DNA of 56,131 nt, taken from IMG/VR virus record IMGVR_UViG_3300002143_000137; one strand, 5' to 3'. Below the pieces are notes generated by a model. The model had not been told where the DNA came from, searched no databases, and worked only from the letters and a program-made list of their open reading frames with translations. Each line of letters starts with the position of its first letter. The stretch's first letter is position 1. This stretch comes from a virus. Of the stretch, positions 2,650 to 56,131 are shown in pieces. Position numbers and translations under genes: made by a program.

Positions 2650-2778
2650 TTAGCTTTTACTCTAATTATTAATAAAATTACCGTTAGCGTAATCTGTCTA
2701 CTGCGCATTTGAATGTACTCACTCCCACAACAATGAGCGGAAAATCCCATTCTGCGCGCACTTCAAAAATCAGTGATT

Positions 2779-2821
2779 TTAACCCACCACTTACCCACAC
2801 TTTATCCACAGAAGACCCACA
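2779..2821 (+). promoter_or_regulatory. Four 11-bp-phased DnaA-box-like repeats, including a perfect TTATCCACA
   Basis: CCCAC at 2783, CCCAC at 2794, TCCAC at 2805, CCCAC at 2816. TTATCCACA at 2802-2810 and TTACCCACA at 2791-2799. Confidence 0.45.
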
Positions 2822-3234
2822 ACATCTTGTGCTTGCGAAATCATGCAAATCTTATCAAGCTACAGAAGTGCTCTTAAATAAAGAGCCAATTAGAGGAAAA
2901 TGCTTAGCGGATAAATTTAAACAGATGGCCCCTTACTCGAAGGGGCACAGGTTCTTGGGGCTCGCCGCAAAACTAGGCCCAAGGTGTCACAACCGAATCT
3001 TAGCTAATCAAAATACAGTTGGCTAGTATAGATTCAAATTAAAAGGAATTGCCCTGTGATTACATTAATCATAGTACAGGTGATCGTAGACTGCATGGCG
3101 CAATTAATTGCTGCTTTACTACCATGCGTGTGTGAAAGCCTTGCTTGGACTTGCTTAATCTTTATCTAACCGCAAGGATGAAGCCTTAGTGCTAAATTTG
3201 CGCAAAGGCTTCAGCTTACTTTTGAGTGATCATT

Positions 3235-3450
3235 ATGAGCTTACTGCTTGTAATCTTGGCTACTATCGCATCCATCGCCGCCCTCGGTGTCCATGGCCTT
3301 TGGGTCTTTTTAATTGGCTTAGGCTTATTGTCAGCCATAGAAAAAAAACACCCAGGGACGAACTTTGTCGAGGGTGCCGTTTCGATCATTGGCATTTTGA
3401 TTGTCGTAATGATGGCGGCGGAGATCCTTCTCCGCACCCTTCAAGGTTAA
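3235..3450 (+). CDS. Small hydrophobic membrane protein (71 aa, 2-3 predicted TM segments)
   Basis: MSLLLVILATIASIAALGVHGLWVFLIGLGLLSAIEKK...IIGILIVVMMAAEILL. No competing gene on the other strand. Stop overlaps the stop of the giant gene (TTAA). A hairpin at 3180-3212 lies upstream. Confidence 0.5.
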   Translation: MSLLLVILATIASIAALGVHGLWVFLIGLGLLSAIEKKHPGTNFVEGAVSIIGILIVVMMAAEILLRTLQG

Positions 3451-9400: not shown

Positions 9401-12400
9401 CGGCCTCCATATCCTCGGCAGTCCTAATGACCTCAATCTTTTCCATGGCGCCAAGGATGGCTTTATAGGCCGCAACAATCTCTGGCCTGGCGTTGCTGCC
9501 CTTTAAGAGCCAATCCCTGTCTGCATGCTCACTAAGGAATGGCCCCTCCTGCCGAGCTAGGCCCGCAATTACACCGAAATGATGATCGACCGCATGGCCA
9601 AACTCATGGGCCAAGCTTCCTGCGCCCGCCGTTTTTGTAATATTGATTTCATTTAAACCGGGGACAAAGTGCGCCGCCGCGTGGCTGCCATGACCTTGAG
9701 CGCCAAAGGCAACGCCGAGCATTCCACCAAGCGACATTGACTCCGGTGGTACGCCCATCACCTCCGCCAAATCCAGGAAGGCATCATAAGCGGCGTTAGT
9801 GTGCTGCTGCCGGTCTGCTGCATTCATCCAGTTGCCAAAATTCACCCCCCGGAAACCAAACGTAGTCCGAAGCTGGTCGGCCGTTACATCGCTTTCTCTT
9901 CGCGCCTCACCAATTCGCTCGACGTGATCCATTGAAACGCTTGGCTCCTTGAAAGATGCCTCTCGTTCAACCTTCGCCAAGTCTCTCGCCGCCTGAATCG
10001 CCGCCTCCTGCGTGTCGTGCTCGCTTAATACGCTACGGAAGCGCTTTTTACTCACCCCCCATTTATCACCCTTTTGGGTGACCGTATATTGTTTCTCCCA
10101 CGCTTCACGCTTAGCGGGCCATCCCTCGGATATTTCCTTAACCGCTTTACGCAAATCAGCAGAGCCAATATCGGCGCGCTTTATAAACCTGTTGCCGCCA
10201 ATGGCGAGGATATTGCGATTACCCTCCGGGTTTTTCTTACCCCAGCGAGCGCCGTTATCGTTTTCAGGAAAGGCCGCCTCGTATATTTTGTGAGTTATCG
10301 CTTTTAATGAGTCTGCTACCGACTTGCTGGCTCGCTGCTGTGCCAGATAGTCAGACCCGGCAGACTGTATTACTTGCAAAGACTCGAGAATTTTTTGCGC
10401 ATATTCCCGCGACCCAGCGTAATCCATGACCACGTCGCGCACTTTGCTGGTTGTTTCAACGAATGCCCGGACACCCTCCTCGCTTTTGCTGTCGGGCTTC
10501 ACTGCCATAGAGTCATAAATGTGCTTCAAGGTGTACGCGGCCAGTGGGTTCATGCCATCATTAATCAGCGCCTCATAATCCGGCTTTGGCCAAATTTTCG
10601 CCTTTACGGCCATCTTCACTTGTTCGGCGTCATTCATTCCCTCGAAGTCACGCATTGTTAGGCCGGTTGATCTGCGACGATTAGCTCCCAGCTCCTCGCC
10701 ACTATCGGCTAATTTCTTTTGAGGCTCAGTCTTGGTTTCTTGATTGCCGGCGCTGGATTTTTCAGTTGATCGACTGGAGCCCTTGCTGCTCTTGGCTTTC
10801 AGCTCTTGATCGGCTTTTGATCCTTTCGCGCCCCGGTCAACATCAGCGCTCGGAAACTCCTTAACCTGCTCCAGCAGCTCAGTGATGGGCGCATCTAAAC
10901 GAATTACCCGCACTTCCTCGTTGTTGTCGCGCTTGGCCATCCATTGGTGGTGACCATCAAGCACATGGCCGTCGCCGGAAACGAGGATAGCGCGGTCGCC
11001 GCCAGTGAAGTCCTTGGCTTTGGCCACCTTAGCTTCGGAAAACTCTTTTTGTGTTGGCTTGAGCGAGCTGGCTGCCACCGTCTCTTCGGTACCGGCAATG
11101 CCGCGCGCCTTGAGGAAGTTTGCCAGGGCGCCGCGGTGCTCAGCCTTAACTTGCGGCATCTCGTCGCGAGGAATATTCAGGGTACCGGAGTCGGTAGAGA
11201 ATGCCGTCCACTCCTTGTCGATCTTGGCGCCGCGAATGTCTCGACCGCGCGCCAACTTCTGTATGTTGCGCAAGGCAACAATATTTGAGTTGTGATCGCC
11301 TCGGTACTGCTTGGCTAGCGCATTATATTCGTCGATTTCATCGGCGGATCGTATAAGCGCGTTCTCAAGCGCTTTTTTGGCGGAAAGCGGCTTAAATGTG
11401 TCGCTCGTTAAGCTTTTTGCCGCAGGCCCGTCAAACAAAGAGTTTTGGCCCCGAGAGTTGGCAATATCAGCCGGCGCGCTGGAGCCAGACAAAGTGAAGT
11501 CGTTAAGCTCTTTGTCGGCGTCGAGTTTTGCGGATATTGCGGCTTCTGCGGATTTTGCGGAGGCTTCGGCGTCAGCTTTCGCTTTCGCCTGGTCGACTAG
11601 CTCTTGCTCGGTGTACTGGTTGAGGCTGAAGTTGTCTTGGTTCCCAGTTTGCCCAAGGCCTTCAGCGCTCCCTTCGCCTCGGTTGGCAGGCTCTCCGTTG
11701 GCGTTCCGTTCATTAGCTCCGTCATTAGCGACTGCCCCGCCTTTGTTCCCAGCACCTTGCGCGTTAAATTGCTGCTCATTGTTAAATGCCTCTTCAGTTA
11801 AGGTAGCGGGCGATCTTTTTTCAACCGCGCCAAACATATCTTCTGCTGGTTTTACGGACTCATTGTATAGCGCGTCAGCTAGTGCTGTCAGCTTGTCGCC
11901 AATCGCTTTCGCTGACCGAATATTTTCAGAGAACATTTGCAGTATAGGCCATGTTTCCGGGGCCACTGTCATATCGGATTGCTGAATAAATTCTTGAAGG
12001 CTTCGGCCTTGCCGGCGCGCATTCACCGCTATGGCTGCCGCCTCAGACACAATCGCCCTTACGTCATAGTTACCCTGGCCCTTGAGGCGAGAAAGCGGCC
12101 CCGCTGCTGCCAATAAGCCAGACATAACCGTGCGCGCTTCGGGGTCGGTTGCTTGTGCCTGCAATCGAATCAGCTCGTCGTTATCAAAAGACGCAGCAAA
12201 TATTGCGTTTTCCATGCGCTCATAGGCGCGCTTGGACGGCAATTTTCCGTCACGCAGGCCGCCTCGCTCCGACTCCGGCATAGCGTTTATAAACTGTTCT
12301 GCCGCTTCTTGCGTTAGCTGCCCATCAGGGCCAATGATCGCGGTACCGGCCACATTGATCCGCCGCGCATCGTTACGCGCCTGCTCTACAGGGGATAGTT

Positions 12401-37729: not shown

Positions 37730-37765
37730 ATATTGCTAGGAATTATTGTGGCGCGGAATGTCCTG
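37730..37765 (-). promoter_or_regulatory. Late promoter-like motif copy 5
   Basis: Minus strand reads AGGACATTCCGCGC, 17 nt, CAATAT. Confidence 0.35.
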
Positions 37766-37909
37766 GCTACGCGGTGAGCCATCAACAGTGATGGTTTTTT
37801 CCGAGATGATTTTTAAGACGACCTCGCCAGCACCACTGTCTACGACAGTAATGATAGTGTCGTCGTCAATGCGTAGGGACTGGCCGATACCGCGCGTGAG
37901 AGATAGCAT
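37736..37909 (-). CDS. Divergent CsrA-like small protein (57 aa, below the ORF-track cutoff)
   Basis: GGAGGA lies 6 nt before the ATG. MLSLTRGIGQSLRIDDDTIITVVDSGAGEVVLKIISEKTITVDG aligns without gaps to the phage CsrA, with 16 identities over 44 positions. Confidence 0.6.
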   Translation of the reverse strand: MLSLTRGIGQSLRIDDDTIITVVDSGAGEVVLKIISEKTITVDGSPRSQDIPRHNNS

Positions 37910-37988
37910 GATTGATCCTCCATGATCATTTGCCGAATTACTGTATATTGATTAAAGCAAATGATCTGGCAAGCATCAATGTTGCAGT

Positions 37989-38037
37989 AAAAATAACCCA
38001 TCGTTGCGCGGGACAGAGCCCGCGAACTGGGTGGGTT
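37989..38037 (-). terminator. Rho-independent terminator separating the nin-like region from the late region
   Basis: Minus strand reads AACCCA..CGCGGG-CTCTGT-CCCGCG..TGGGTT followed by ATTTTT. Confidence 0.7.
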
Positions 38038-38043
38038 ATGCCG

Positions 38044-38253
38044 CTAGCAAGGCTCCATGCCTTTTTTGAATATGCGCCACTTTTGGTCAGAGCTGTGCAT
38101 TGGTGTTTTCCGTTGCACATATTCGCCGGAATCGGTCAGGCTCCTTATCATCATATCGCCAGCAGGCTCGTAATCGTCCCGAATGTGAGCGGTTAATACC
38201 CCTTCCCTCCCGCTGCTATCAATTCGATTTTTAAGTTGGTCAATTTCACTCAT
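38044..38253 (-). CDS. Hypothetical protein (69 aa)
   Basis: ORF only. Confidence 0.4.
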   Translation of the reverse strand: MSEIDQLKNRIDSSGREGVLTAHIRDDYEPAGDMMIRSLTDSGEYVQRKTPMHSSDQKWRIFKKGMEPC

Positions 38254-40577: not shown

Positions 40578-40910
40578 TCACATTTCTGAAATTAACTGGT
40601 TAACATCAATAACCAAATCACGACACTTACTCAAAAGCGCCAGCTCAGTGCCGTACTCACGCGCAAACGCCTTGCGGCCATTGCCGTGCAAACTGATCCA
40701 TAGCGGGTTTGAAAAGGTACTAGGGATGCGGTGATGGTTGCAGCACAGTGGTATTGTCTTAAAGTGGCAGCCCGGTTTGCGGCTACCATCAATGTGGTGG
40801 ATTTCAGGCGGCGTAAATACCGATAAGTGCAGCCTGCAAACAATGCAGCCTAAATTTGCAATGGCATTCAGCCAGATTTTCTCGTCTTTTGTGGGGGTTC
40901 TACCGTTCAT
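40578..40910 (-). CDS. Ref-like HNH nuclease (recombination enhancement family)
   Basis: GCIVCRLH...EIHHIDG...IPLCCNHHR...FAREYGTE. Confidence 0.65.
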   Translation of the reverse strand: MNGRTPTKDEKIWLNAIANLGCIVCRLHLSVFTPPEIHHIDGSRKPGCHFKTIPLCCNHHRIPSTFSNPLWISLHGNGRKAFAREYGTELALLSKCRDLVIDVNQLISEM

Positions 40911-41451
40911 TAATGGCAGCCTCAGCAGGCATGTAGCCAAGGTTCCGCATTAAGAACCGCGACATTTCTTTGGCTATATGTGTTTTAGCGTCGGGCAAAT
41001 AACGCAGCGACATATCGTCTATTGCATAGCCAACATTTTGCTCTTGGTACTCAATGCGAAAATGTACGCGCTTGCGTAACTCGTCAACGATGTGGCCGCC
41101 ATGAATAATCGGCAGCACTTGCTCTAAGAATGCTGTGGCAGGCAGCTCGTTTTGAAGCACCCCCATAGGCGGTCTGTGCCGTCTTTCTACGGCTCTGCGC
41201 CACCCCCTATTTAGCGAATCTAGGTGCTTAATTTCTACTGCCGATGGAGGCAGCGTCACAAAGTGATTGCCCAGTACTGCCGCAGTCTCCTCAACTATTT
41301 CCGCGTTCCGGCGACCCAAAAATTCAAGCGTCTGCATTGCTTCCTCAAGCTCAGTAATGCGCTTTAAGGCCGCTCTCTTCTGATTCCGCCCATACCGCTT
41401 ACTCACTACCTCACCCCCGCTATTCTTGAAATAAAAAACGCCATGCCGCAT
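40900..41451 (-). CDS. Hypothetical protein (about 183 aa, start uncertain)
   Basis: ORF. A 51-aa hydrophobic ORF (41409-41564), coupled by ATGA to the ninB stop, may occupy the 5' part. Confidence 0.45.
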   Translation of the reverse strand: MRHGVFYFKNSGGEVVSKRYGRNQKRAALKRITELEEAMQTLEFLGRRNAEIVEETAAVLGNHFVTLPPSAVEIKHLDSLNRGWRRAVERRHRPPMGVLQNELPATAFLEQVLPIIHGGHIVDELRKRVHFRIEYQEQNVGYAIDDMSLRYLPDAKTHIAKEMSRFLMRNLGYMPAEAAINER

Positions 41452-42351: not shown

Positions 42352-43151
42352 AGTCCGTCCGCCCATGATCTATCGGTGTGCTTGCTCACGAAGCCGGCGC
42401 TATCCGGTGCCTTCACTGGCGGCGCCAACCACTCTGCTCCGTAGCGCTTCCACTGCTGCGGACAGCGCTGAAGAAACGAGGCGTCCCAAGAAGTCTTTGG
42501 CGCCCCACGATCACGCCAATAGGTTTTAAACTCGGCAAGCTGCTCGATGATGAATTGTTCGGGAATCTTGTGGATGACTTGCAAAAACTCCATCGTTGCC
42601 TCGGCCGGCAACCACTCGTCGATAACACTTTGGAAATTTTCAATCTTTCGCGCTGGCGGCGGTGCGTCAGCACCAATGTTGTAAATAGGTGAAGGTGAAG
42701 GTGAAGGTGAAGGTGAAGGTGAAGGTGAAGGGCATTCCTCATGCACTGCTTGAGGAATGCTTGGAGCATTACTTGAGGAGGTCTTTACAGGCTCACCCTC
42801 TTTATTTTTGTCTTTCCCCCACCTAGCCGCTGCTGCGCGCTCCGCTTTTTCCTTCGCGACACGCTTTTTCGCATACGCCGAACTCAATTCTTGTTCTATG
42901 CGCTTATGCTTCCAGCATCCTTGATCTATGCTAAAGAAATGCTCCAAGCATCCTCTAGCATTGCTCCAAGCATTCAATGACATGCGGGTAATAGACGCCA
43001 AGGTTTGATCGTTATCCGGTAACGGGCCATTCATCCAATAGTCCATTATCAGCAGCATGTAAGCACCGTGCATTTCGGTCGTTAGGCGCGACGTACCTGC
43101 TAGGTAGTCGCCGATATACAGCGGCATAAAGACATCAGGCTTATCCATCAC
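42348..43151 (-). CDS. DUF1376 (YdaU-like) replication-module protein with an (SP)7 linker
   Basis: FMPLYIGDYLAGTSRLTTEMHGAYMLLIMDYWMNGPLP. Confidence 0.7.
   Translation of the reverse strand: MMDKPDVFMPLYIGDYLAGTSRLTTEMHGAYMLLIMDYWMNGPLPDNDQTLASITRMSLNAWSNARGCLEHFFSIDQGCWKHKRIEQELSSAYAKKRVAKEKAERAAAARWGKDKNKEGEPVKTSSSNAPSIPQAVHEECPSPSPSPSPSPSPSPIYNIGADAPPPARKIENFQSVIDEWLPAEATMEFLQVIHKIPEQFIIEQLAEFKTYWRDRGAPKTSWDASFLQRCPQQWKRYGAEWLAPPVKAPDSAGFVSKHTDRSWADGL
42688..42729. repeat. Hexanucleotide microsatellite GGTGAA x7 (coding)
   Basis: Read directly. Encodes SPSPSPSPSPSPSP on the minus strand. Confidence 0.95.
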
Positions 43152-43438
43152 TCTTCTCCACGGTACTCAAGTGATTCGGCGCCCTTGATTGAAGCCATAT
43201 GCTGTTTGGCGATCAGAATGTAGGGCTCAATATCTTCCGGCCGGTAGCACTTGGTGTCGACTGGCACGACCTTTAATTCAAGCGTCTCTAAAAGAATTGC
43301 AATCTTTGGTAGCTGTTCGCTCTGGAGTCGACTAACGGTCGACTCAGATACATCCATCGCTGTCGCGCAGGCTGACTGTCCGACCTTTGCAAGTCGCTGC
43401 AAAATTAGCGATTCATACTTGCGGGCGTTTTCATGCAT
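43148..43438 (-). CDS. cII: CII-like transcriptional activator
   Basis: ESLILQRLAKVGQSACATAMDVSESTVSRLQSEQLPKIAILLETLEL aligns with the lambda CII HTH region. Confidence 0.65.
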   Translation of the reverse strand: MHENARKYESLILQRLAKVGQSACATAMDVSESTVSRLQSEQLPKIAILLETLELKVVPVDTKCYRPEDIEPYILIAKQHMASIKGAESLEYRGEE

Positions 43439-43462: not shown

Positions 43463-43702
43463 TTAACAGTTGTTGCTGGTAGTTTGCAGAGGAGCTTCAA
43501 TGTCATATCTTTCGGGGTAAAGAATTTCCAGCTCGCTCATTTCCCCATTTGAAGCCGCTGCCAATCGCTCAGCGAGTTTTTTCCCGCAAGAGCCCTTGGC
43601 TATTGCGATAAGCTTAAAATTATCGAAATTAGTACCGGCACTACTGCAGACGGCGCTTACACGGTCGCGATCATAGGTTTTGTAAAACTGTCGTGGAGTC
43701 AT
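43463..43702 (-). CDS. Cro-like early regulator (79 aa)
   Basis: First gene transcribed from the PR-like promoter, divergent from cI. GGAGGGA SD present. Confidence 0.55.
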   Translation of the reverse strand: MTPRQFYKTYDRDRVSAVCSSAGTNFDNFKLIAIAKGSCGKKLAERLAAASNGEMSELEILYPERYDIEAPLQTTSNNC

Positions 43703-43732: not shown

Positions 43733-43804
43733 ATATTAGTGTTTTAGTAACATTTGGTCAATATTACTTTACTACTAACTATTAGTGTTTTACTCCAATA
43801 CAAT
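43733..43804. promoter_or_regulatory. OR-like operator cluster with divergent PR-like and PRM-like promoters
   Basis: 21-bp sites at 43733, 43761 and 43779 (ATATTA-N9-TAATAT family). PR on the minus strand: TTGACC, 17 nt, TAATAT. PRM -10 TACAAT at 43799-43804, 7 nt before the cI ATG. Confidence 0.65.
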
Positions 43805-43810
43805 ACGATT

Positions 43811-44176
43811 ATGGAAATCACTGAAGTACGACGAGAAAACTTCCGCTACCTAGCCGACAAAATAGGCAGGAGCGCGCTCGCCCAAAAAATGGGTTACAAC
43901 GATGTGGGGTACATTAATGGCTTGCACGCAGGTCACGGCAGTTTTGGAGGGAGAACGGCGCGGAAAGTAGAAAAATCGCTAGGCCTTGAAAACGGGTGGA
44001 TGGATGTCGCTCACCCCGAAATTACATCTCTAGGAACGGATTCGGGTCAAATACCTGTCGAAGAATTGATAAGAATTTCTGGGCGTCTAAAGGATTTAGC
44101 CCCGGAAAACATTGCAGCGTTAGAGGCATTTCTTGACAGCTTGATTGCTCGAACAAATCAACAGCCTGGGAAATAA
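43811..44176 (+). CDS. cI: CI-like repressor, HTH only, no S24 peptidase domain (121 aa)
   Basis: MEITEVRRENFRYLADKIGRSALAQKMGYNDVGYINGL...RTARKVEKSLGLENGWMD. No SD upstream, so probably leaderless. Confidence 0.7.
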   Translation: MEITEVRRENFRYLADKIGRSALAQKMGYNDVGYINGLHAGHGSFGGRTARKVEKSLGLENGWMDVAHPEITSLGTDSGQIPVEELIRISGRLKDLAPENIAALEAFLDSLIARTNQQPGK

Positions 44177-44433
44177 ACACCTCAAATCGAGCCCGCTCCG
44201 GCTCCATTAAGCCAGATAAAACAACATTCAATACTTCTAGGGTTAAGTTAGTCATGGCAACTCCTTTGGCATGCGCAGTAGATTCATATCTGATTATAAA
44301 AATAGAACTCTTAATACTTGAGTGCTGGCACTGACACTAACAGCTGGCGCAGCAGCGGCGGCCAAAATGCATTAATTGAAATAAAATTACCAGAAAATTT
44401 TAAAACCTATGTGGTCCGTATAAAGGTGCTTCC

Positions 44434-44645: not shown

Positions 44646-44671
44646 AAAACCGCCCAACAGCGGTTTTTTTT
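44646..44671 (+). terminator. Rho-independent terminator
   Basis: AAAACCGC-CCAACA-GCGGTTTT followed by a T-run. Confidence 0.8.
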
Positions 44672-44685
44672 CATCCCAAGAATTT

Positions 44686-44741
44686 ATATTACTGTTTTAC
44701 TAATATTTACCCTTGACTGAATATTTGTATTTTACTAATAT
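44686..44741 (+). promoter_or_regulatory. OL/PL-like element: two 21-bp operators around a near-consensus promoter
   Basis: ATATTACTGTTTTACTAATAT (44686) and ATATTTGTATTTTACTAATAT (44721). TTGACT at 44713, 17 nt, TAATAT at 44736. Confidence 0.7.
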
Positions 44742-44885
44742 TTATTCATACCGAACACCCCCCACGTCCGAGTACGGGCCGCGACAAGGGATAAGGAGTT
44801 GACCCGCTCCGGTGTTGCTAAAGGCTTACCGAAAGGCGCTAGCGGCAGGTAATTAACCTAACCCAAATTGCAAAAGGAAATTGAA

Positions 44886-45257
44886 ATGTCGAAAGAAGCT
44901 ATCGCAGAAATCATTGAGAGCGCCCTAAGAAAATCGGCGCAAGCTCGCGATGAAAAGCCAACCGCGCTACAGAATGAAGCTGCTGGCGAACAGCTCAAAG
45001 AGTGGTTTTCGGTCTACGGTGAGAAGCACACTTTTCATCCTGGCCAGCTTTTAACCATAAAGCCAGGCATCCCCTCGCCCTACAAGCTCATTGAGCACGG
45101 TACGCCTGTTGTTTACGTTCGGGCGGTCACTAACGAAGACAGATCGAGCCGCGATCACGGCGATAATTTTTTAAGCGAAGACTTTATAGGCGGCAAACAC
45201 ATTCACGGCAAATTTGTGATGTTTACTTTCGACGCCGGATTTTTCCAACCACTCTAA
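44886..45257 (+). CDS. Hypothetical first gene of the early-left operon (123 aa)
   Basis: AAGGAA lies before the ATG at 44886. Confidence 0.55.
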   Translation: MSKEAIAEIIESALRKSAQARDEKPTALQNEAAGEQLKEWFSVYGEKHTFHPGQLLTIKPGIPSPYKLIEHGTPVVYVRAVTNEDRSSRDHGDNFLSEDFIGGKHIHGKFVMFTFDAGFFQPL

Positions 45258-45272
45258 TCACCTGGGACTTTG

Positions 45273-45297
45273 CCCCTCTCTGCGGAGGGGATTTTTT
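45273..45297 (+). terminator. Rho-independent terminator / attenuator
   Basis: CCCCTC-TCTGCG-GAGGGG followed by ATTTTTT. Confidence 0.7.
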
Positions 45298-45319: not shown

Positions 45320-45628
45320 ATGAATCTAAGCAACTATCCAGACAATATTCGCAGCTTCGACCATTGTCCAGGTAGCCCGTTTTATAGCGGCCCTATTATG
45401 ACTGACAGCGAAATGCTTGAAGTTGAGTTGGATGGCATTCTTGAGAATGAAATGGATGATCTTTTTGGCGAGTCCATTACCGAAAGCCCTGAATTTAAAG
45501 CCATTGTCGCTGCCGCCAATCTCGGCAAAGCAAAGGAACTACTGCTCCTTATTCAAACTGCGCGCGCCCGGTACGCGCAAGAGGTCGCGATAGCGCGCGT
45601 TAAAAACGGCGCCTGTCTCTGGGTGTAA
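45320..45628 (+). CDS. Acidic hypothetical protein (102 aa)
   Basis: ORF with an SD (AAAGGGAG). Confidence 0.5.
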   Translation: MNLSNYPDNIRSFDHCPGSPFYSGPIMTDSEMLEVELDGILENEMDDLFGESITESPEFKAIVAAANLGKAKELLLLIQTARARYAQEVAIARVKNGACLWV

Positions 45629-45801
45629 CTATGAAGCGCCTTGATCCCAGCCTTACTCAACAAGACCTTATTCGCATGTTTGGACTGCGGTTTCGTCTGC
45701 GCTGGAGGCGAGAATGAAAGCACTGCTGATTTTAATTTTAGCCTTACTTGCACACAGCTGCGCAGTAAATGAAGACACACGGCACACGGAGAGCGTGAAC
45801 A

Positions 45802-46752
45802 ATGAACACTCAAGAGCAACAAGTCTACACCCCGGCCACTAACCATCCAGTGGCATCAATCAACAACGACCAAGAATTGCAAAATCTGCTGTTTAATCAT
45901 CAGGCAATGGCGCAGCTTCATGCGCTGGCCACCACGATGGCAAGCAGCAAAATAAGCGTGCCAGCGCACTTTCGCGGCAACGTCGGCGATTGCATGGCGG
46001 TCTGTATGCAAGCCGCTCAGTGGCGAATGAACCCCTACGCCGTGGCGCAAAAAATGTTTATCGCCCAGGGCGGGCAGCTAGCTTATGAGGCGCAACTGGT
46101 GAATGCCGTTGTAACTTCAAATGCGCCAATTAAGTCACGCCTGGACTACGAGTTTTTGGGCAACTGGGAAAAGATCCTTGGCAAAGTCGTTGAGCGCGAA
46201 GGCAAAGGCGGCGGCAAATACTTCGCGGCCGCTTGGAATCAAAACGACGAAGAAGGCCTTGGCGTTCGTGTTTACGCAACACTGAAAGGCGAAGACACGC
46301 CACGCGAACTGCATCTACTACTCAAGCAGTGCTACCCGCGATTTTCGACTCAGTGGGCTACAGATCCACAGCAGCAAATCACTTACTTGGCCGTCAAGAA
46401 ATGGGCGCGCCGCTTTTGCCCGGATGTGATTCTCGGTGTTTACACGCCGGATGAACTGCAAGATTACGCGCCAGCCGAGCGCGACATCACGCCGCGTGCC
46501 GCGAGCATTAGCACTGAGGCTTTTCTTTCTGCAGAGCAAGTAGCCACGATCAAAAGCCAGCTGGCCGACATTGGCTACACCGAGCAAAAGTTAGCTGAGG
46601 TCGCAGGGGGATTTAAGTCGCTACAACAGATTCCCGCGTCCGGCTATACCCGCGTAATCCAGTACATCGACCGCGTAAAAGAAAAGCGCGCAGCGATTCA
46701 GAGCCAAGCCCAAGAAGCTAGCGAAGCGGAGGGTTACGACTATGCGAATTAA
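45802..46752 (+). CDS. recT: RecT/Bet-family single-strand annealing protein
   Basis: WATDPQQQITYLAVKKWARRFCPDVILGVYTPDE parallels the Bet/RecT C-terminal core. Adjacent to an exonuclease gene. Confidence 0.75.
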   Translation: MNTQEQQVYTPATNHPVASINNDQELQNLLFNHQAMAQLHALATTMASSKISVPAHFRGNVGDCMAVCMQAAQWRMNPYAVAQKMFIAQGGQLAYEAQLVNAVVTSNAPIKSRLDYEFLGNWEKILGKVVEREGKGGGKYFAAAWNQNDEEGLGVRVYATLKGEDTPRELHLLLKQCYPRFSTQWATDPQQQITYLAVKKWARRFCPDVILGVYTPDELQDYAPAERDITPRAASISTEAFLSAEQVATIKSQLADIGYTEQKLAEVAGGFKSLQQIPASGYTRVIQYIDRVKEKRAAIQSQAQEASEAEGYDYAN

Positions 46753-47494
46753 GCCCCCAGCAATCGAGTGGTGTACTAACCCCCAGGGCTCCAATGGCTG
46801 GCACGACGACCGCGCAGGCGTCATTAGCGCCAGCAAATTCCACCTGTTCATGGAGAAACTGAAAACCGGCCCTAATGCTGGTGGCTATAAAGCCGAAGCC
46901 GTTAAGTACGCCTATGAGCTGGCTTTAGAGCGCATTATTGGCGGCTGCCTTGACGACACCAAGTACAGGACTGAGCACGCCAGCCGCGGTAACGAGTTGG
47001 AGCCCGAGGCGCGCGCCGCTCACGAAGATATGGCCGGCTGCATTGTTTACGAAGTCGGCTTTATTCGCACCCTGGACCGCAAGTTTGGCGCAAGCCTAGA
47101 TGGCGTTATTCGTCCAGGCGGCACCGCTGAGTACAAGGCGTTTACTGACCCGGTAAAAGTCATGGACGCATTGGTTCGCGGCATGGATGACGAGGTAAAA
47201 GCGCAGGCTCAAGGTGGTTTGTGGTTGTCTGACAGCGATTGGTGCCACTACGGCCTCTATCTCCCTGGGCTTAAAAAAATTGCTCGCGACATCAGCATTA
47301 TTGAGATTGAGCGCGACGAGGAATATATCGAGCGACTAGACCACGAGGCGCGCTTGTTCGACAACCTCGTTGTTGAGTTTATGAACCAAGTTTTAGAGAG
47401 CCGTCAGGCGCCGCTGAAGTACCCGGCCAGGACTGCAGTAAAAAAGCCACAACAACAGCCAGAACCCGAGCTAGAGCTGCATTTTAATTTTTAA
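46742..47494 (+). CDS. YqaJ-type (lambda-Exo-like) recombination exonuclease
   Basis: DRAGVISASKFHLFM...; PD-(D/E)xK-like core. Coupled to recT. Confidence 0.7.
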   Translation: MRIKPPAIEWCTNPQGSNGWHDDRAGVISASKFHLFMEKLKTGPNAGGYKAEAVKYAYELALERIIGGCLDDTKYRTEHASRGNELEPEARAAHEDMAGCIVYEVGFIRTLDRKFGASLDGVIRPGGTAEYKAFTDPVKVMDALVRGMDDEVKAQAQGGLWLSDSDWCHYGLYLPGLKKIARDISIIEIERDEEYIERLDHEARLFDNLVVEFMNQVLESRQAPLKYPARTAVKKPQQQPEPELELHFNF

Positions 47495-47504
47495 GGAGAA
47501 CGCC

Positions 47505-48485
47505 ATGACCGCACTACAAATTATCCATACACCAGGGTTTGTAAGAGCAAACCTTGCCGAGCTTGAGGAGCGCGTAATTGCCCGCCTGGCGAGCTATAAA
47601 GGCTTGGTGTTAACTAATGAGCAAATCCCCGAAAGCAAAAAAGAAGCGGCCAATTTACGTAAGGAGAAAAAAGAATTATCGGTGGCGCGCATAAAACTAA
47701 CCAAAGACAACGATGCCGCTATTGCAGACGTTATTGGTACGCTTAAAAGGCTTGAATCACTTTACGAAGAAGCTGCCGATGATTTAACCGCGCAAGCTAG
47801 AGAGAGCGAAAGCATCCGTAAGACCGAAGCGCGCGACACTCTGCTGGCATCATTGATTGCAGCCTGGGACGCCAGCGATGTTAACCAGGAGCACCGCACC
47901 GCGACTATCAATGACCTAGTGACGCTCACAGCCGTTACTATCAAAGGAAACCCGACCGCCAAAGTCAGTGCAGAAATTAAATGTCGCGCCGCCGCTGACC
48001 GCGCCAATCAAGACCGCACCAAAATGCGTTTACTTGAGCTTGCCAATCAAAGCTACGAGGCCGGGCTGGATGCACCTCTTACGCGCGGCCATGTAGAAAT
48101 GTTCCTTTTTGCTGATGACGAGACTTACCGCAGCGGCATAGAGCGCATTATTACCACCGAAATCGAGCGCCAAAAAGTTACTGAGGCGCGCGTAGAGCAG
48201 CGCCAGCAGCAAGAGGCCGAAGCCGAGCAGCGCCGTCAAGCCATTGCGCCACCGCCTGAAGTAGCGCCCGCGCCTGCGGCTGAAGCAGCACCCGCCGCCA
48301 CACCTGTTGCGCCGCAAGCGAATACCCGCACTGTAACCATTGTTTGCACATTCCAGACAGGCGTGCCAGCCGGAGCCTCAGAAGCACAAGTAGAGAATTC
48401 AATCAAAAAACAACTAGAGGCCAAAGGCTTCACAAGCCTGTCCTCAGTTAAAGCCACTTTCGACCCACAACAAACCGCAGCATAA
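47505..48485 (+). CDS. DUF1351-like protein (326 aa)
   Basis: N-terminal pattern NLAELEERVIARLASYKGLVLTNEQIPESKKEAANLRKEKKEL. Proline/alanine-rich linker. Confidence 0.45.
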   Translation: MTALQIIHTPGFVRANLAELEERVIARLASYKGLVLTNEQIPESKKEAANLRKEKKELSVARIKLTKDNDAAIADVIGTLKRLESLYEEAADDLTAQARESESIRKTEARDTLLASLIAAWDASDVNQEHRTATINDLVTLTAVTIKGNPTAKVSAEIKCRAAADRANQDRTKMRLLELANQSYEAGLDAPLTRGHVEMFLFADDETYRSGIERIITTEIERQKVTEARVEQRQQQEAEAEQRRQAIAPPPEVAPAPAAEAAPAATPVAPQANTRTVTIVCTFQTGVPAGASEAQVENSIKKQLEAKGFTSLSSVKATFDPQQTAA

Positions 48486-48494
48486 GGAAATAAC

Positions 48495-49076
48495 ATGAGC
48501 CCAATACTGTTTTTCGACACCGAAACCACTGGCATACCTGCTTGGAAAGACCCTAGCGATTCCGAGCACCAGCCACACATCGTCCAGCTCGCCGCCATCG
48601 TGTGTGATGAAGACACCGGCAAGGTGCTTAGTATCATGGACGTGATTGTGCGGCCTACTGACGACTGGGAGATACCCGCAGAAACCACAGCGATTCATGG
48701 GATTACCCCGGAGATTGCTGAGACGTATGGCGTGCCGGAGCATCTTGCCCTGGATATGTTTTTAAACCTATGGCGCGGAAGCGTGTGTGTCGCGCACAAC
48801 TCCCCGTTTGACCAGCGCATCATTCGTATTGCAATGAGCCGGTTCAATAAAAACGAGGCAATGAAAGCCGCATGGAAATCGAGCGACGGCCACTTATGCA
48901 CAATGAGCCAAGCGCGGCGAATCATGGGCGGCAGCAAGCCGCCGAAGCTTAGCGAAGCCTACGAGCACTTTACTGGCAAGGTGCTTGAAGGCGCGCACTC
49001 AGCAATAGCAGACGCCAGAGCTTGCATGGAAATTTACTTTGAAATGAAAGGAAAAGGAGCAGCAATAGCATGTTGA
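48495..49076 (+). CDS. DnaQ-like 3'-5' exonuclease
   Basis: [10 protein letters not shown] (ExoI), [10 protein letters not shown] (ExoII), HSAIADARA (ExoIII). Confidence 0.85.
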
Positions 49077-49252
49077 TACTGACGCGCCGTATTGGCGAAA
49101 CCATGATGATCGGTGATGACGTAACCGTCACCGTTCTGGGCGTTAAAGGTAACCAGGTTCGCCTTGGCGTGACTGCGCCAAAGGAAGTGAGCGTGCATCG
49201 CGAAGAGATTTACGAGCGCATTCAAAACGAGAAAGAGGCACAGCCAGCATGA
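49070..49252 (+). CDS. csrA: Carbon storage regulator CsrA/RsmA homologue (60 aa)
   Basis: [55 protein letters not shown]. Confidence 0.95.
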
Positions 49253-49611
49253 CCACTGATTCAAATGAATTTCTAACAGACCTGGACGGCGGCAATTTTG
49301 ACGCCGACCTAATGCGGGCCTTGGGAGTCACCGCGCTATCTGCCATTGAGCAAGAGCGCGTCTCCAAAATCTCCATCCAATTCAAGCTAACCCCTATTGG
49401 CGGCGGCCATCAGGTAATGGTTGATCACACCATTTCCTATGAGCGCCCTACCAATAAGGGTGAGATGAAGGAAAAGCAGTCGGGCAGAACACCGATGTAT
49501 GTCGGAACGCACGGCCGCTTAACATTCTTCCCTGAGAATCAGGGGACTATGTTCGATAAGCAAGGCGGTATTACCACCAACACATTCCCAACCAAATCTA
49601 AGGAGCAATAA
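49249..49611 (+). CDS. Hypothetical protein (120 aa)
   Basis: ORF coupled (ATGA) to the csrA stop. Confidence 0.55.
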
Positions 49612-49616
49612 GCATT

Positions 49617-50456
49617 ATGATCGACCAATCAGCTATCCAAGAGCTTCAACAGAACCCTACCACCATTGAAGCAAACAAAATACTTGCCGGTCTAGGCTTG
49701 CAAGTGCCGTCCATCGCACTGCCGAAAGACTTTAATATTACAAATCTTGAGGGGCGCCTACCGGCGCCAGTGCGCAAGCGCGGAACAATGAGCACCAACA
49801 GTATCGCGAGTTTCGTTAGCTACGTTAGTAGTGAAAGCACCGACCATAGCGTCTGCTTTGTTCTTTCCGACAAGATGACTGCTACCGCAATTCTGAATCA
49901 CGGCAACGCAGAAAAACCACAGCACGGCGATTACCGGGCGAAAGCGACTCTGGAAAAGCTACCGGATTACGAGGCCATGCTGCGCATAGATGGTGTCAAG
50001 CTATCGCAACAGTCAATCGCTGAATGGCTTGAAGAGTATCGCCACTGCATTACCTTCCTTGACAGCCAGGGCAGCACCATTCCGGCGGTAAAAGCCATTT
50101 CCGCCGTTAGAAATGTGAAAACCAAAAAAGAGAGCGTCGTCGATAACAAGGTCGACACCTTTCATGCTTCGCGTGGCGCTTTTGAAAGCGCCGAGATTAA
50201 GGGCGACGGCCTGCCAAGCTTTATTCGGTTTACATGCCAGCCTTATGACCCGCTTAGCGAGCGCGAGTTTGATTTTCGGTTATGGGCAACCACTGACACT
50301 AATCCCGTCTTTGGGCTGAAGTCGATGAACCTTGCCAAAACCCAACTGTATATCGCGGAAGAGTTTGCAGAGCTAATCGTGAACGAGCTTCGCGACGAAG
50401 CTGTGCCGGTTTATATCGGTAGCTTTGGTAATGGCAGCCGCTACGAAGACGCTTAA
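49617..50456 (+). CDS. DUF2303 (YfdQ-like) protein
   Basis: ALPKDFNITNLEGRLPAPVRKRGTMSTNSIASFVSY...HGDYRAKATL...QQSIAEWLEEY. Confidence 0.55.
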   Translation: MIDQSAIQELQQNPTTIEANKILAGLGLQVPSIALPKDFNITNLEGRLPAPVRKRGTMSTNSIASFVSYVSSESTDHSVCFVLSDKMTATAILNHGNAEKPQHGDYRAKATLEKLPDYEAMLRIDGVKLSQQSIAEWLEEYRHCITFLDSQGSTIPAVKAISAVRNVKTKKESVVDNKVDTFHASRGAFESAEIKGDGLPSFIRFTCQPYDPLSEREFDFRLWATTDTNPVFGLKSMNLAKTQLYIAEEFAELIVNELRDEAVPVYIGSFGNGSRYEDA

Positions 50457-50520
50457 AAACTGCATGGCGGCGGCGTTAACGCGCCGCCACTACTAAACGA
50501 TAAAGAATTAAGGAGCCGTC

Positions 50521-51108
50521 ATGGCCAGAGGCATAAACAAAGTAATCATCGTGGGCAACTTGGGCCAAGACCCTGAGACGGCATACATGCCAAGCGGCGG
50601 CGCGGTAACAAAAATATCTGTCGCCACCAGTGAGCAATGGAAAGACAAAAATACTGGCCAGCCCGTCGAAAAAACCGAGTGGCACCGCATTATATTTTTT
50701 AACCGCCTAGCGGAAGTCGCGGGCGAGTACCTGAAGAAAGGCAGCAAGGTCTATGTTGAGGGCTCGCTGCGCACCCGCAAGTGGACCGACCAAGCCGGCG
50801 TGGAGCGCTTCACGACCGAGATAGTGGCTAGTGAAATGCAAATGCTGGACGGTCGCAGCGACAACCGTCAAACGGGAAACGGCCATTCCCCTGCGCAGAA
50901 TGCTCCTGCCCAGGGCCAGCCGAGGACCACTGCCCCATCACAGGGTCATGGTTCTGCCCCGACGACGAATAACCAACGCGGCGCACCCGGCGCACCGCAG
51001 CATGGCTACCAAAACCAGCAAGAGCCGGCGCCTCAGTACGGTGGCGGCTGGGATGCTATGGACGATGATATTCCGTTCGCCGAGATCGGCCCAGAGGGCA
51101 TGTTTTGA
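50521..51108 (+). CDS. ssb: Single-stranded DNA-binding protein
   Basis: [19 protein letters not shown]...[11 protein letters not shown] fold, Gly/Gln/Pro tail, and a DDDIPF acidic tip. Confidence 0.95.
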
Positions 51109-51287
51109 TGAACCGAATAACCGCCCTAGTTACGTCAATGTTCGCGTTTGCGGGCGTTGACTTACCCAAGCGGCGCAGCCTACCAAAAAAGCTGTGCCTC
51201 GAGTGCAATAAACCGCACCCCCATAGCAACGCATGGTGTAGCGCTCAATGCTGCAAAGACTACCGCGACGCGAGAAAAGCAAAATGA
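51108..51287 (+). CDS. Small Cys-rich protein (59 aa)
   Basis: CLECNKPHPHSNAWCSAQCC. Confidence 0.45.
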   Translation: MNRITALVTSMFAFAGVDLPKRRSLPKKLCLECNKPHPHSNAWCSAQCCKDYRDARKAK

Positions 51288-51424
51288 GCGACCAACCTAA
51301 GCGCGAAGACTTTGAAAGCGAAGAGGCTTACGACGATGCGGTGGATGAATATCTTGAAGAGCAAGCGTTAAGTAATCCGAAGTTTGGCGGGGCATTTGCT
51401 GAGATTCTTGGAGGTGCGAAGTGA
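51284..51424 (+). CDS. Small acidic ORF (46 aa, below the track cutoff)
   Basis: ATGA coupling to the previous stop. Sequence MSDQPKREDFESEEAYDDAVDEYLEEQ... Confidence 0.35.
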   Translation: MSDQPKREDFESEEAYDDAVDEYLEEQALSNPKFGGAFAEILGGAK

Positions 51425-51473
51425 ACTACTGCAACTCATTACATTACCGAGCCAGGCGCGTATAGGAGGCATA

Positions 51474-51674
51474 ATGTTTCTCTCGCCAGAAGAAATACAC
51501 CAACTTACCGGATACGAACCAAATCAACGTGTGCGAATCGCTCGATGGCTAACAGTAAACGGCTATCCCTATACTACTAATCGCCTTGGCGACCCAGTAG
51601 TAAGGCGCTCTGACGTTGAAAGCAGCATTATTCCATCAACAGAACCCAATTTAGAATGGCTTAAATCAGCATGA
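51474..51674 (+). CDS. DUF4224-type excisionase-like protein (66 aa)
   Basis: TAGGAGG SD. MFLSPEEIHQLTGYEPNQRVRIARWLTVNGYPY. Overlaps the int start. Confidence 0.65.
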   Translation: MFLSPEEIHQLTGYEPNQRVRIARWLTVNGYPYTTNRLGDPVVRRSDVESSIIPSTEPNLEWLKSA

Positions 51675-52654
51675 GTCCTAAGCGATCAAGAACAAATAAA
51701 GGCCCAGAGCGCACCACCTTTAAAAACGGAGCCTGGTATTACCTTAAGCCGATTATAAAAGCGGGTAAAAACACCACCCAATGGATCCGGCTTGGCAAAA
51801 CCGAAAAGGAGATGTACCAACAACTTGCTGAACTGAAGTCAGAAGGTGCTGGCTTAATGGCCGCTATTATTGAGCGATACCGCAAGGAAATCATCGTTAA
51901 GAAAGCAGTCAACACCCAGAACGCACAGGGCAAGCAGCTAGACCGTCTTAAGAGAGCCTTTGGCCATATGCGCCCTAGCGACTTAAGACCTTCTCACATC
52001 GCAAAATATCACGATTTAGTGGGCGATAAAGCTCCATTCCAAGCGAACCGCGAATTGGCTCTGATGACGCACGTCTGCAAATACGCGGTCCGCTGGGGCC
52101 ATATCGACGACAACCCATGCCGCGAAGTTCAACGGTTCCCCGAGCAAGCCCGAGAACGCTACATAAGCGATGCCGAATACACCGCCGCCCGTGATATTGC
52201 GCCACTGTGGGTACAAATCATCATGGACCTAGCATACGTGACCGGCCAACGTAGAATCGACCTACTAAGCCTCACACGCAACCAAATCACCGACCAAGGC
52301 ATACTCATAAAACAGAGCAAGACCGGCGCCAACCTACTCATAGAATGGACGCCAGACCTTGAAAGCATCATCACCAGGGCACAAACCGAACTATTACCGG
52401 CCGGTACGGCATCTATCTACATTATCTGCGACAGTAGCGGTCAAAAAAGAAGAGACGCCGCATTCACAACCGCATGGACACGCTTAATGAACAAAGCCAT
52501 CAAGGCCGACGTAATTACGGAAAAATTCCAATTCAGGGATATTCGAGCCAAGGCAGGATCAGACAGTAGCGGTGAACAGCTGGGGCATAAATCAGCGACA
52601 ATACTCAATAAGCACTATAAGCGCCTACCAAAAAGAGTTAAGCCGACTCAATAA
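51671..52654 (+). CDS. int: Tyrosine integrase
   Basis: GQRRIDLLSL (Arg box) and LGHKSATILNKHYKR (H-x-x-R...Y region). Confidence 0.9.
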   Translation: MSPKRSRTNKGPERTTFKNGAWYYLKPIIKAGKNTTQWIRLGKTEKEMYQQLAELKSEGAGLMAAIIERYRKEIIVKKAVNTQNAQGKQLDRLKRAFGHMRPSDLRPSHIAKYHDLVGDKAPFQANRELALMTHVCKYAVRWGHIDDNPCREVQRFPEQARERYISDAEYTAARDIAPLWVQIIMDLAYVTGQRRIDLLSLTRNQITDQGILIKQSKTGANLLIEWTPDLESIITRAQTELLPAGTASIYIICDSSGQKRRDAAFTTAWTRLMNKAIKADVITEKFQFRDIRAKAGSDSSGEQLGHKSATILNKHYKRLPKRVKPTQ

Positions 52655-54202: not shown

Positions 54203-55018
54203 TCAATCGTTGCTCGCTGATCGCTCCTCTATCTTCGCAATTGCAGCATCAAAGGCTTCCGTTGCGACACTAGGCCTATTCCAGAAATATGTGCGCCGCT
54301 TAAGAATTGAAAGCAGTTCAGAATCGGCCACCGGATCAAATACCAATGGCTCATTTTCTCGGGCATAAGGATATAGCCGCTCACATTTTGCGTGGACCAT
54401 CGCTACATTAAGTATTTCGGAGACAACATCACTCCTCCCATAGCCGGCACTTCGCTCATTAAGCCCGCCAACCCTAGAGTGGATAATTTGCAACTTTGAA
54501 AGTATTGACGCCATAAACTCCGCAACATTCGGCGGAGCATGGACAATGCAGTCGCGAAATACAGCTTGATAAGATGCCGGAAGTTTAGGCAATTCAAGTA
54601 CAAGCGTATCCGGGTCGTTCTCATCAAAATAGCCCTCCCTTGGCAAAGACTGATAAAGGCCCGAAAAAATGACATTCACATCATCAAAGTAGCCATGCAA
54701 CTCTGACAAAGACGCGGTTAAAAAAACCTTAGCAGCTACAAACTCTCTGCGACGCTGCTCCTCGACGAGTTCCTTTTGCTGAGCGACTTGCCTTCGAGCC
54801 GCCCACAAGGCTATAAAACTTGCTCCGAGGGCAATCATCGCAGCATTGAATGTCTGCCAGCGCCCCCAAACTTCTTGAACATAGCCCCAATCCCATCCGC
54901 TAATAGCAAACGGCCAAACAACCATCGCGATGAAGTACAAGGCAAACGGCAGAATCACAAAAAAAAGGAATATCCAAGCAGCTGGCTTCTTTAAGATCCC
55001 GTTCAATTCCTGCACCAC
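54203..55018 (-). CDS. Membrane protein: 2 N-terminal TM segments plus about 190 aa of helical cytoplasmic domain, no recognisable family
   Basis: AAWIFLFFVILPFALYFIAMVVWPFAI and FNAAMIALGASFIALWAA. The start overlaps the nuclease gene by 16 nt. Confidence 0.7.
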   Translation of the reverse strand: MVQELNGILKKPAAWIFLFFVILPFALYFIAMVVWPFAISGWDWGYVQEVWGRWQTFNAAMIALGASFIALWAARRQVAQQKELVEEQRRREFVAAKVFLTASLSELHGYFDDVNVIFSGLYQSLPREGYFDENDPDTLVLELPKLPASYQAVFRDCIVHAPPNVAEFMASILSKLQIIHSRVGGLNERSAGYGRSDVVSEILNVAMVHAKCERLYPYARENEPLVFDPVADSELLSILKRRTYFWNRPSVATEAFDAAIAKIEERSASND

Positions 55019-55452
55019 GCTGGTTTTTTCCCTCCATCATACGGAACTGCATGTCCAGACCTGATCAGGCTTTCACCCAAACTAACGCCATCTATCCAGA
55101 CCTCGGCCAACAACCTGAAATATTTGTCTCGTTCCAATGCCCGCAACTCAACCGATTTCCCAGCCCGGAGCATAGACACGGCATATTGTTTCGCCGCCCT
55201 GGCCGCGTACTTTTCTGCGTGGCATTTACCTCGTAGCTCTGGGGTATCAACCCCTTTAACGCGAACAGAAATACTCTCCCCCACTATTGCAGGCCAATTA
55301 TTAATATCGACTTTGAACGAATCCCCGTCGTAAATAGTGCGGATCGCCGAGACAGTGACAGCGCCGTATCCTTCTGCATATACTAATTGAGGCGCTAACA
55401 ACGTCAAATATAGGGAAAGCCATCGAGCGATAACATTACGACGCCGACTCAC
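55003..55452 (-). CDS. Secreted staphylococcal-nuclease (thermonuclease) homologue
   Basis: Signal peptide MSRRRNVIARWLSLYLTLLAPQLVYA. Catalytic pattern DGDSF...VRVKGVDTPE...DKYFRLLAEV. GTGA overlap with the upstream stop. Confidence 0.8.
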   Translation of the reverse strand: MSRRRNVIARWLSLYLTLLAPQLVYAEGYGAVTVSAIRTIYDGDSFKVDINNWPAIVGESISVRVKGVDTPELRGKCHAEKYAARAAKQYAVSMLRAGKSVELRALERDKYFRLLAEVWIDGVSLGESLIRSGHAVPYDGGKKPAWCRN

Positions 55453-55845: not shown

Positions 55846-56131
55846 TCACACCGGCTTTTTCCGTTTAGCTTTGGGCCTATCTACAGGAAGCAATGATGTG
55901 ACCTTCTCGTAAAGCTCGAAAAGGAACGCCACCCTCTCTGCCTCGGTGGCCCAGCTTTTCTTGCCACCGCTAGGTACATAAGCATCATCGACGGCTCGGT
56001 CGAGAGCCCGGTGAGCCCTAACCAGATCAAGCGGCATAAAGAGCGGATCATATAGGTCAGCCAACGTCGATTCATGGTGGACTGATCTAGTGTCGATGAC
56101 TGCTTGAGCCGCTTTTTCAATTGCAGCTCTA
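55846..56131 (-). CDS. C-terminal end of the MmeI-family enzyme (55966-56131 duplicates 1-166)
   Basis: The frame continues ...DDAYVPSG then GKKSWATEAERVAFLFELYEKVTSLLPVDRPKAKRKKPV, with the stop at 55846-55848. Confidence 0.85.
   Translation of the reverse strand, partial: RAAIEKAAQAVIDTRSVHHESTLADLYDPLFMPLDLVRAHRALDRAVDDAYVPSGGKKSWATEAERVAFLFELYEKVTSLLPVDRPKAKRKKPV
55966..56131. repeat. Terminal overlap copy 2 (identical to 1-166)
   Basis: Read directly. Confidence 0.95.

Follow-up and report, generated by a model that had tools for sequence, protein, structure and literature searches.

Why would a temperate phage carry a nearly cellular copy of the bacterial regulator CsrA, and is such a gene a stray piece of host DNA or a settled part of the phage's own programme? 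The question is raised by IMG/VR virus record IMGVR_UViG_3300002143_000137, a stretch of 56,131 nucleotides (the window), which encodes a canonical 60-aa CsrA/RsmA protein (copy 1) from an ATG start at positions 49070-49252 of the plus strand and a 57-aa paralogue with the CsrA fold (copy 2) at 37736-37909 of the minus strand. Its two ends (1-166 and 55966-56131) are an exact direct repeat of 166 bp. Closed at this repeat, the DNA measures 55,965 bp, and the window therefore represents the complete genome, circular or circularly assembled, of a lambdoid temperate phage of ~56 kb. Taking all lines of evidence together, we consider it rather probable that copy 1 is a functional canonical CsrA, resident in this lambdoid phage, that would be transcribed early and add to the CsrA activity of the host.

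The identity of copy 1 is clear from the scores of its predicted product, which exceed all curated CsrA family cut-offs that we tried. It reaches 92.8 bits against the Pfam CsrA profile (PF02599, cut-off 27) over profile positions 1-52 of 53, 118.7 and 102.1 bits against the NCBIfam equivalogs NF002469 and TIGR00202 (cut-offs 73 and 70.1), and an E-value of 1e-33 against the PHROG family annotated as "CsrA-like regulator" (phrog_9500). It aligns without gaps to residues 1-58 of E. coli CsrA at 82% identity, and its best matches among solved structures are RsmA and CsrA (1VPZ, 1Y00 and 2BTI), colinear over residues 1-59, with 1VPZ being RsmA from P. aeruginosa and 1Y00 being CsrA from E. coli. 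Judged by sequence, copy 1 thus has each testable property by which we delimited the family, i.e., a length of ~60 aa and an alignment that runs colinear with the solved CsrA proteins through five beta-strands and the helix at the C-terminus. The alignment further shows that it keeps L4 and R44, which are critical for RNA binding by CsrA (PMC7652899), along with L2, R6, V42, H43, E46 and I47, and that all RNA-binding residues of strands beta-1 and beta-5 are retained (L2, L4, R6, R7, V40, V42, R44 and I47). The predicted RNA-binding surface is indistinguishable from that of cellular CsrA, and the simplest reading is that copy 1 would dimerize as CsrA usually does and recognize GGA motifs presented in the loops of hairpins at ribosome binding sites, where translation starts.

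Besides this contig, the exact copy 1 protein turned up on just one other, which is 5 kb long and has the same genes next to csrA, and a search for near-identical DNA in GenBank phages and E. coli genomes returned nothing besides a 75-nt match in the gene for the single-stranded DNA-binding protein (SSB). Two metagenomic relatives carry csrA at the same junction directly upstream of YfdP. In locus L004, the gene product (P0002, 83% amino acid identity, from a contig of 54.6 kb) is encoded in the order RecT, YqaJ, DUF1351, RNase_T, a 175-nt spacer, CsrA, YfdP, DUF2303 and SSB; in locus L013 (P0024, 87%), the order is RNase_T, a 114-aa open reading frame (ORF), CsrA, YfdP, DUF2303, SSB and DUF4224. 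The C-terminal tail of the protein (NEKEAQPA) is identical in the window, L004 and L013, and that exact tail occurs in none of the 40 other top matches whose sequences were read. Proteins flanking csrA in the window and L004 are 58-77% identical, and the three syntenic csrA genes have accumulated synonymous substitutions to saturation (dS 1.0-1.4) at a ratio of nonsynonymous to synonymous change (dN/dS) of 0.08-0.12. Both the GC content of csrA and that of its third codon positions (GC3) match the neighbouring genes. The CsrA core (60 aa) is too constrained for a tree to resolve its origin. Given the synteny, the common tail, the saturated synonymous change and the matching composition, the sequences identify csrA as a gene that has long belonged to this phage lineage under purifying selection and not as a recent capture, which settles in favour of a phage lineage a check that had been proposed in a preliminary description of this DNA.

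Within this kind of operon, csrA is an accessory gene of the RecT module and not a core component. More distant phages have it at other positions of such an operon, namely between DUF2303 and SSB in a prophage (L073) and directly after a YqaJ-DUF1351 fusion in another locus (L047). By capsid protein, the window phage is most similar to phages of Vibrio crassostreae (59%) and to Xuquatrovirus phages of E. coli (54%), all of which carry csrA; in the Vibrio crassostreae phages, the gene sits in an operon diverging from the replication genes.

Copy 1 is embedded in a run of plus-strand ORFs (45320-52654) that adjoin or overlap one another. After two small ORFs, this operon encodes RecT (45802-46752), a YqaJ exonuclease (46742-47494) and a DUF1351 protein (47505-48485), all assigned by Pfam, followed by a DEDDh (RNase_T or DnaQ-like) 3'-5' exonuclease (48495-49076; Pfam RNase_T 84.5 bits, with DEDDh matches in NCBIfam and PADLOC) and CsrA. 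The next ORF, taken from the ORF list, is YfdP-like (49249-49611; PF27127 YfdP is the precomputed domain recorded for an identical protein), and the operon continues, by Pfam and precomputed domains, with DUF2303 (49617-50456), SSB (50521-51108), small ORFs, DUF4224 (51384-51674) and a tyrosine integrase (51671-52654). The stop codon of the exonuclease gene falls within an ATGTTGA at 49070-49076 that creates a 7-nt overlap with the csrA start, and the YfdP-like ORF shares an ATGA with the csrA stop from its own start at 49249. The ATGA overlap is kept in both related phages, L004 and L013; the ATGTTGA overlap is kept only in L013, there with another upstream ORF, and L004 has the 175-nt spacer instead. 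A Shine-Dalgarno sequence (AAGGAG, 49054-49059) can be read 10 nt before the csrA ATG. In this arrangement, translation of csrA would depend in part on that of the preceding exonuclease gene, and translation of the YfdP-like gene would in turn be coupled to csrA. By analogy to E. coli csrA (PMC7652899), three GGA motifs no more than 45 nt upstream of csrA (at 49028, 49050 and 49056) are possible autoregulatory sites. The preliminary description had presented this ORF as a canonical 60-aa CsrA, coupled by overlaps on both sides and located inside an early recombination operon, and it was right about the ORF itself in every detail: the family scores and the identity to E. coli CsrA bear out the assignment, both overlaps can be read in the sequence, and the tightly packed RecT, YqaJ, SSB and integrase neighbours confirm the location.

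A consensus scan found neither a promoter nor a terminator adjoining csrA, and within the operon it gave a single match, a weak one (9/12) at 48610-48637 in the coding region of the exonuclease. Upstream of the operon, the scan predicts a pL-like promoter on the plus strand (TTGACT-17-TAATAT, 44713-44741) that is flanked by TTTTACTAATATT-type boxes. These boxes recur at both of two divergent promoter-like sites (43733-43800 and 44673-44745) and are likely operators of the phage repressor. The second predicted promoter (43733-43761, minus strand) lies upstream of an ORF in the position of Cro (43463-43702, minus strand) and a CII-like gene (43148-43438, minus strand; Pfam Phage_CII 30.1 bits). 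Between the two sites are an ORF in the position of the repressor (43811-44176, plus strand), which like the Cro ORF is assigned by position only, a small membrane protein ORF on the same strand and a terminator-like hairpin (44646-44667). Divergent promoter-like sites with shared boxes, a CII-like gene, recombination genes and a terminal integrase together make up the layout of a lambdoid pL-type operon, with Cro and repressor placed by position and promoters by prediction.

Because of this architecture, with a pL-like promoter beside operator-like repeats, early expression of csrA on infection or induction is the most likely programme. Firing at that moment, the promoter would transcribe csrA with the recombination, SSB and integrase genes, and by analogy to lambda pL the repressor would keep csrA silent in the lysogen. 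The first gene of the early operon (44886-45257, plus strand) encodes a 123-aa protein with no family match. It is followed by a predicted terminator-like hairpin with a T-run (45273-45290, plus strand), a gene-then-hairpin layout that resembles lambda N and tL1 and suggests antitermination; csrA would then be a delayed-early gene that needs read-through past this hairpin. The early expression that had been claimed for csrA is thus favoured by architecture and analogy, and the timing itself is what we infer from them.

Copy 1 made early from a replicating phage would add to the CsrA pool of the host, beyond what the host's sponge RNAs can take up, and push the infected cell toward a CsrA-high state in which CsrA-repressed defences such as CRISPR-Cas could drop. 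RsmA is known to repress CRISPR-Cas, and phage-encoded RsmA homologues have been proposed to exploit this and to reshape host physiology (PMC8450108). A flooding of the host Csr system, as originally envisaged for this gene, is plausible as an effect of copy 1 on its host.

Several observations weigh against this interpretation. Rfam detects no Csr/Rsm sponge RNA in the window, and the CsrA consensus WCANGGANGW is not enriched in the genome (5 found vs 4.1 expected). Searches for relatives of the DUF2303 protein, first with the single protein and then with an alignment, found none in species-representative genomes or in named NCBI genomes and led to no named genome in a set of 5.8 billion proteins, and the reading presumes a host with a Csr system. 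The 10-nt spacing of the csrA Shine-Dalgarno sequence is long, the hairpin at 45273-45290 could limit csrA transcription without read-through, and csrA lies within 10 kb in only 2 of 54 RecT-related viral loci. Finally, it is from sequence and gene order that we infer expression, binding and phenotype of copy 1. The non-coding DNA of the window contains no GGA cluster; the only strong cluster on the plus strand (43751-44225) was considered as a sponge and rejected, as it lies inside the ORF in repressor position. A multi-GGA sponge RNA such as CsrB/C or RsmX/Y/Z would have to be supplied by the host.

The second, divergent copy of CsrA that had been reported at 37736-37909 does exist, and it is of a different kind. 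Its product reaches 29.2 bits against Pfam CsrA (cut-off 27) over profile positions 1-42 only and stays below the NCBIfam CsrA cut-off (22.8 vs 73), and hhalign finds it homologous to CsrA with a probability of 95% over residues 1-44, corresponding to strands beta-1 to beta-5. Copy 2 keeps L2, L4 and R6; it has D-G-S-P-R in place of H43-R44-E45-E46-I47 and no C-terminal helix, and thereby lacks both R44 and the RNA-binding subdomain formed by beta-5 and the helix. As far as its sequence tells, it is a true yet weak CsrA homologue and not a second canonical regulator, and it is unlikely to act as a second GGA-binding regulator because R44, which is essential for RNA binding (PMC7652899), is missing. 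The proposed two-component manipulation of the Csr/Rsm system consequently lacks support as written, although a conserved hairpin (see below) suggests that the two copies are linked, and regulation of copy 2 by copy 1 seems a reasonable hypothesis.

Copy 2 is a real gene, given that it has a syntenic homologue of 68% identity (P0122) in a locus colinear with window positions 42029-36389 (L011) and that the two genes differ by pN 0.17 (nonsynonymous) vs pS 0.80 (synonymous, saturated). This homologue, like a weaker one (P0129), has also lost R44 and the helix. L011 and L013 both stem from one sequencing run (SRR29257462), and one relative phage probably carries both CsrA paralogues. Further kin are scarce: tblastn found no relatives of copy 2 among phages, viral contigs yielded none by protein or by a 22-nt leader pattern, a word-based protein search returned only the query itself, and an exhaustive HMMER search added only P0122 and P0129. 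A metagenome scan recovered mostly ordinary CsrA proteins and two short forms without R44 (L074/L075 and L076), which are CsrA-like ORFs of 46-63 aa without the H-R-E motif and the helix. The match in L076 is perhaps not genuine, since a long ORF runs through the same stretch in a different frame; together, these forms hint at a scattered class of truncated mini-proteins with the CsrA fold.

Copy 2 precedes tail-fibre-like and terminase genes, and a terminator-like hairpin with a U5 tract lies just upstream (37984-38044, minus strand; -26.2 kcal/mol, z = -3.3), so that copy 2 looks like the first ORF of a late transcription unit. Its leader contains a 19-nt block, ATGATCATGGAGGATCAAT (37911-37929, minus strand), that is identical at 19 of 19 positions in L011, whereas outside this block the intergenic DNA of L011 and the window differs widely. 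Part of this block is a hairpin, UGAUC-AUGGAG-GAUCA (37913-37928), with an ANGGAN hexaloop on a 5-bp stem over the Shine-Dalgarno sequence of copy 2; it is present in the predicted minimum-energy fold and an exact match to WCANGGANGW. High-affinity sites of CsrA and RsmE have this form, with GGA in a six-base loop on a short stem (PMC7652899), and the leader hairpin is a credible candidate target of CsrA. It is one of only two such hairpins with a Watson-Crick stem genome-wide; ANGGAN hairpins overall are not significantly enriched (6 vs 2.7 +/- 1.8 expected). The other one with a Watson-Crick stem of at least 5 bp, GCGGAG-AAGGAT-CTCCGC (3418-3435, minus strand), is located just past the stop codon of a gene for a giant polyvalent protein and inside a convergent ORF for a 74-aa membrane protein (3226-3450, plus strand), an ORF that recurs at the end of L004 with 72% conservation.

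On the reading that we prefer, this hairpin at the ribosome binding site of the first late ORF would be a candidate target within the phage, next to the effects on the host. It could instead be the main point of carrying csrA, in that early CsrA would bind the copy 2 hairpin as a translational timer or brake on copy 2 and perhaps on genes coupled to it, with host effects being secondary. The exact placement over the Shine-Dalgarno sequence in the minimum-energy fold, the high-affinity form, the rarity of such hairpins in the genome and the preservation of the 19-nt block amid diverged intergenic DNA and despite a pS of 0.80 all argue for a function of this kind. We still regard it as a possible but unlikely primary role, since the conservation rests on two sequences only and is expected for a ribosome binding site anyway, and since CsrA consensus sites are not enriched genome-wide. 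Moreover, the inverted repeat holds two GATC sites and could instead work at the DNA level, bound by a protein or methylated by Dam, and relatives that have csrA and no copy 2 homologue cannot run a circuit between the two. A more elaborate early/late circuit would have early CsrA, together with host CsrA, hold off copy 2 via the ANGGAN hairpin until late transcription outruns this brake. The R44-less and helix-less paralogue would then be made and, having kept the dimer core of beta-1 to beta-4, might co-assemble with CsrA into mixed dimers with one working RNA site each. Copy 2 would in that case be an anti-CsrA made of protein, by which Csr control is reset in the late phase of infection. 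The known protein antagonists of CsrA, FliW and CesT, have unrelated folds, and we know of no degenerate paralogue described as one; that the whole chain of steps holds seems doubtful to us.

The temperate nature of the phage, seen in its integrase and CII-like gene, also invites the idea of lysogenic conversion, i.e., that csrA is expressed from the prophage and alters biofilm formation, motility or virulence of the host to the lysogen's benefit, and a published list of prophage genes with a presumed influence on biofilms does include csrA (PMC11295528). Conversion genes, however, typically form transcription units apart from their neighbours, whereas csrA shows neither its own promoter nor its own terminator and is embedded by overlaps between lytic-cycle genes, and the operator-flanked pL-like promoter should be repressed in a lysogen. 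We therefore see conversion as improbable. Even less can be said for a recent host capture or a neutral passenger without a role for the phage. Cellular csrA genes in their usual alaS-lysC-csrA setting (P0007 and P0021) encode proteins that are 85-87% identical to copy 1, and in the core (residues 1-51) copy 1 is closer to cellular CsrAs (88-94%) than to the syntenic phage copies (80-84%), which speaks for a capture. Against this stand the same position and identical lineage-specific tail in three diverged phages, the saturated synonymous change under a dN/dS of ~0.1 and a GC3 equal to that of the neighbours; the contig is also circular, and independent samples show the same arrangement. A recent capture or passenger is thus very improbable, and an early phage-encoded addition to host CsrA activity remains the interpretation that we favour.

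The remainder of the genome is that of a lambdoid phage. Its late region occupies most of the minus strand and includes genes for the small and large terminase subunits, portal, major capsid and tail-fibre-like proteins, with the polyvalent protein of 3,826 aa at its end (3447-14927, minus strand), in which an HNHPSG motif of the RadC/JAB kind can be recognized by eye, along with further segments that resemble enzymes. A replication and Nin-like region encodes a primosomal protein, NinB, a match to a Holliday-junction resolvase family (RusA-like), a Ref-like nuclease and an HNH protein; the Ref-like RecA-filament endonuclease match (phrog_2321, E=2e-15; 40578-40940, minus strand) lies beside the RusA-like match and NinB. 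A 3.4-kb stretch at 1-3447 that appeared gene-free is not, as an intact minus-strand ORF of ~930 aa, missed by the ORF lister, spans the circular junction from ~2640 through 1/55966 to 55846. By eye only, its MmeI/YeeA-like N-terminus (IDLFWPGMLLAEHKSRG) and methyltransferase-like C-terminus (AERVAFLFELYEKVTS) suggest either a restriction-modification enzyme of type IIL or a methylase without a partner nuclease (orphan). The accessory region that separates this methylase-like gene from the integrase encodes a staphylococcal nuclease homologue with a hydrophobic N-terminus (Pfam SNase 39.5 bits; 55003-55452, minus strand).

The finding of csrA in a phage is less new than the preliminary description had implied, because such genes have already been surveyed and one of them knocked down (PMC7366521, PMC8450108, PMC11879866). 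Phage-borne CsrA is documented and routinely annotated with its own PHROG family; copy 1 is a clean further example of a gene that is ordinary for phage genomics, and what is known of the Csr system is unchanged by it. Beyond the catalogue, the window adds a conserved junction within a recombination-SSB-integrase operon, a quantified selection on the gene, and a paralogue without R44 whose leader holds a conserved CsrA-type hairpin; paralogue and hairpin form a modestly interesting lead. The window thereby offers a well-defined case, i.e., a near-cellular CsrA that a temperate phage has built firmly into its early operon, that is kept there in diverged relatives under strong purifying selection and that has a candidate target in the same genome, so that two ideas become directly testable: reprogramming of the host or action against its defences, and timing within the phage.

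Compared to the chromosomal CsrA and RsmA of Gammaproteobacteria, copy 1 has the same length, a gap-free alignment, 82% identity to the E. coli protein and the same RNA-binding residues. It differs in its setting, a phage early operon instead of alaS-lysC-csrA, in its lineage-specific tail and in having no leader of its own. Sobrero and Valverde (2020) found csrA in 30 of 2,517 phage genomes (PMC7366521), Campa et al. (2021) reported further sets of phage CsrA/RsmA homologues (PMC8450108), and our tblastn search returned 89 phage records with a CsrA homologue, including the Vibrio phages with the closest capsid. Like these, the window phage is a tailed phage of a gammaproteobacterium that carries a csrA gene; unlike them, it has its copy wired by overlaps into a RecT/YqaJ/DEDDh/SSB/integrase operon and a degenerate paralogue in the same genome, and copy 1 is 82% identical to cellular CsrA vs 58-65% for the copies of the capsid-related Vibrio phages.

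A phenotype has been reported for just one phage csrA, which provides the sole functional datum on phage-borne CsrA: the Xuquatrovirus homologue gp28 of PTXU04, a virulent E. coli phage that formed smaller plaques when the gene was knocked down by CRISPRi-ART (Adler 2025, PMC11879866). The Xuquatrovirus group has its capsid (54% to phage Pondi) and a giant polyvalent protein in common with the window phage. The csrA product of Pondi, the relative that we compared in place of PTXU04 itself, is only 30% identical to E. coli CsrA, keeps H-R and has no helix; its gene adjoins that of a 2,192-aa polyvalent counterpart, and no integrase is annotated in the 50 kb examined. CsrT of a Legionella integrative and conjugative element and the csrA alleles of plasmids (PMC7366521) likewise represent mobile elements that supply a CsrA-family regulator of their own, yet these paralogues are diverged and reside on conjugative elements or plasmids, whereas copy 1 is near-canonical and part of a lytic-cycle operon.

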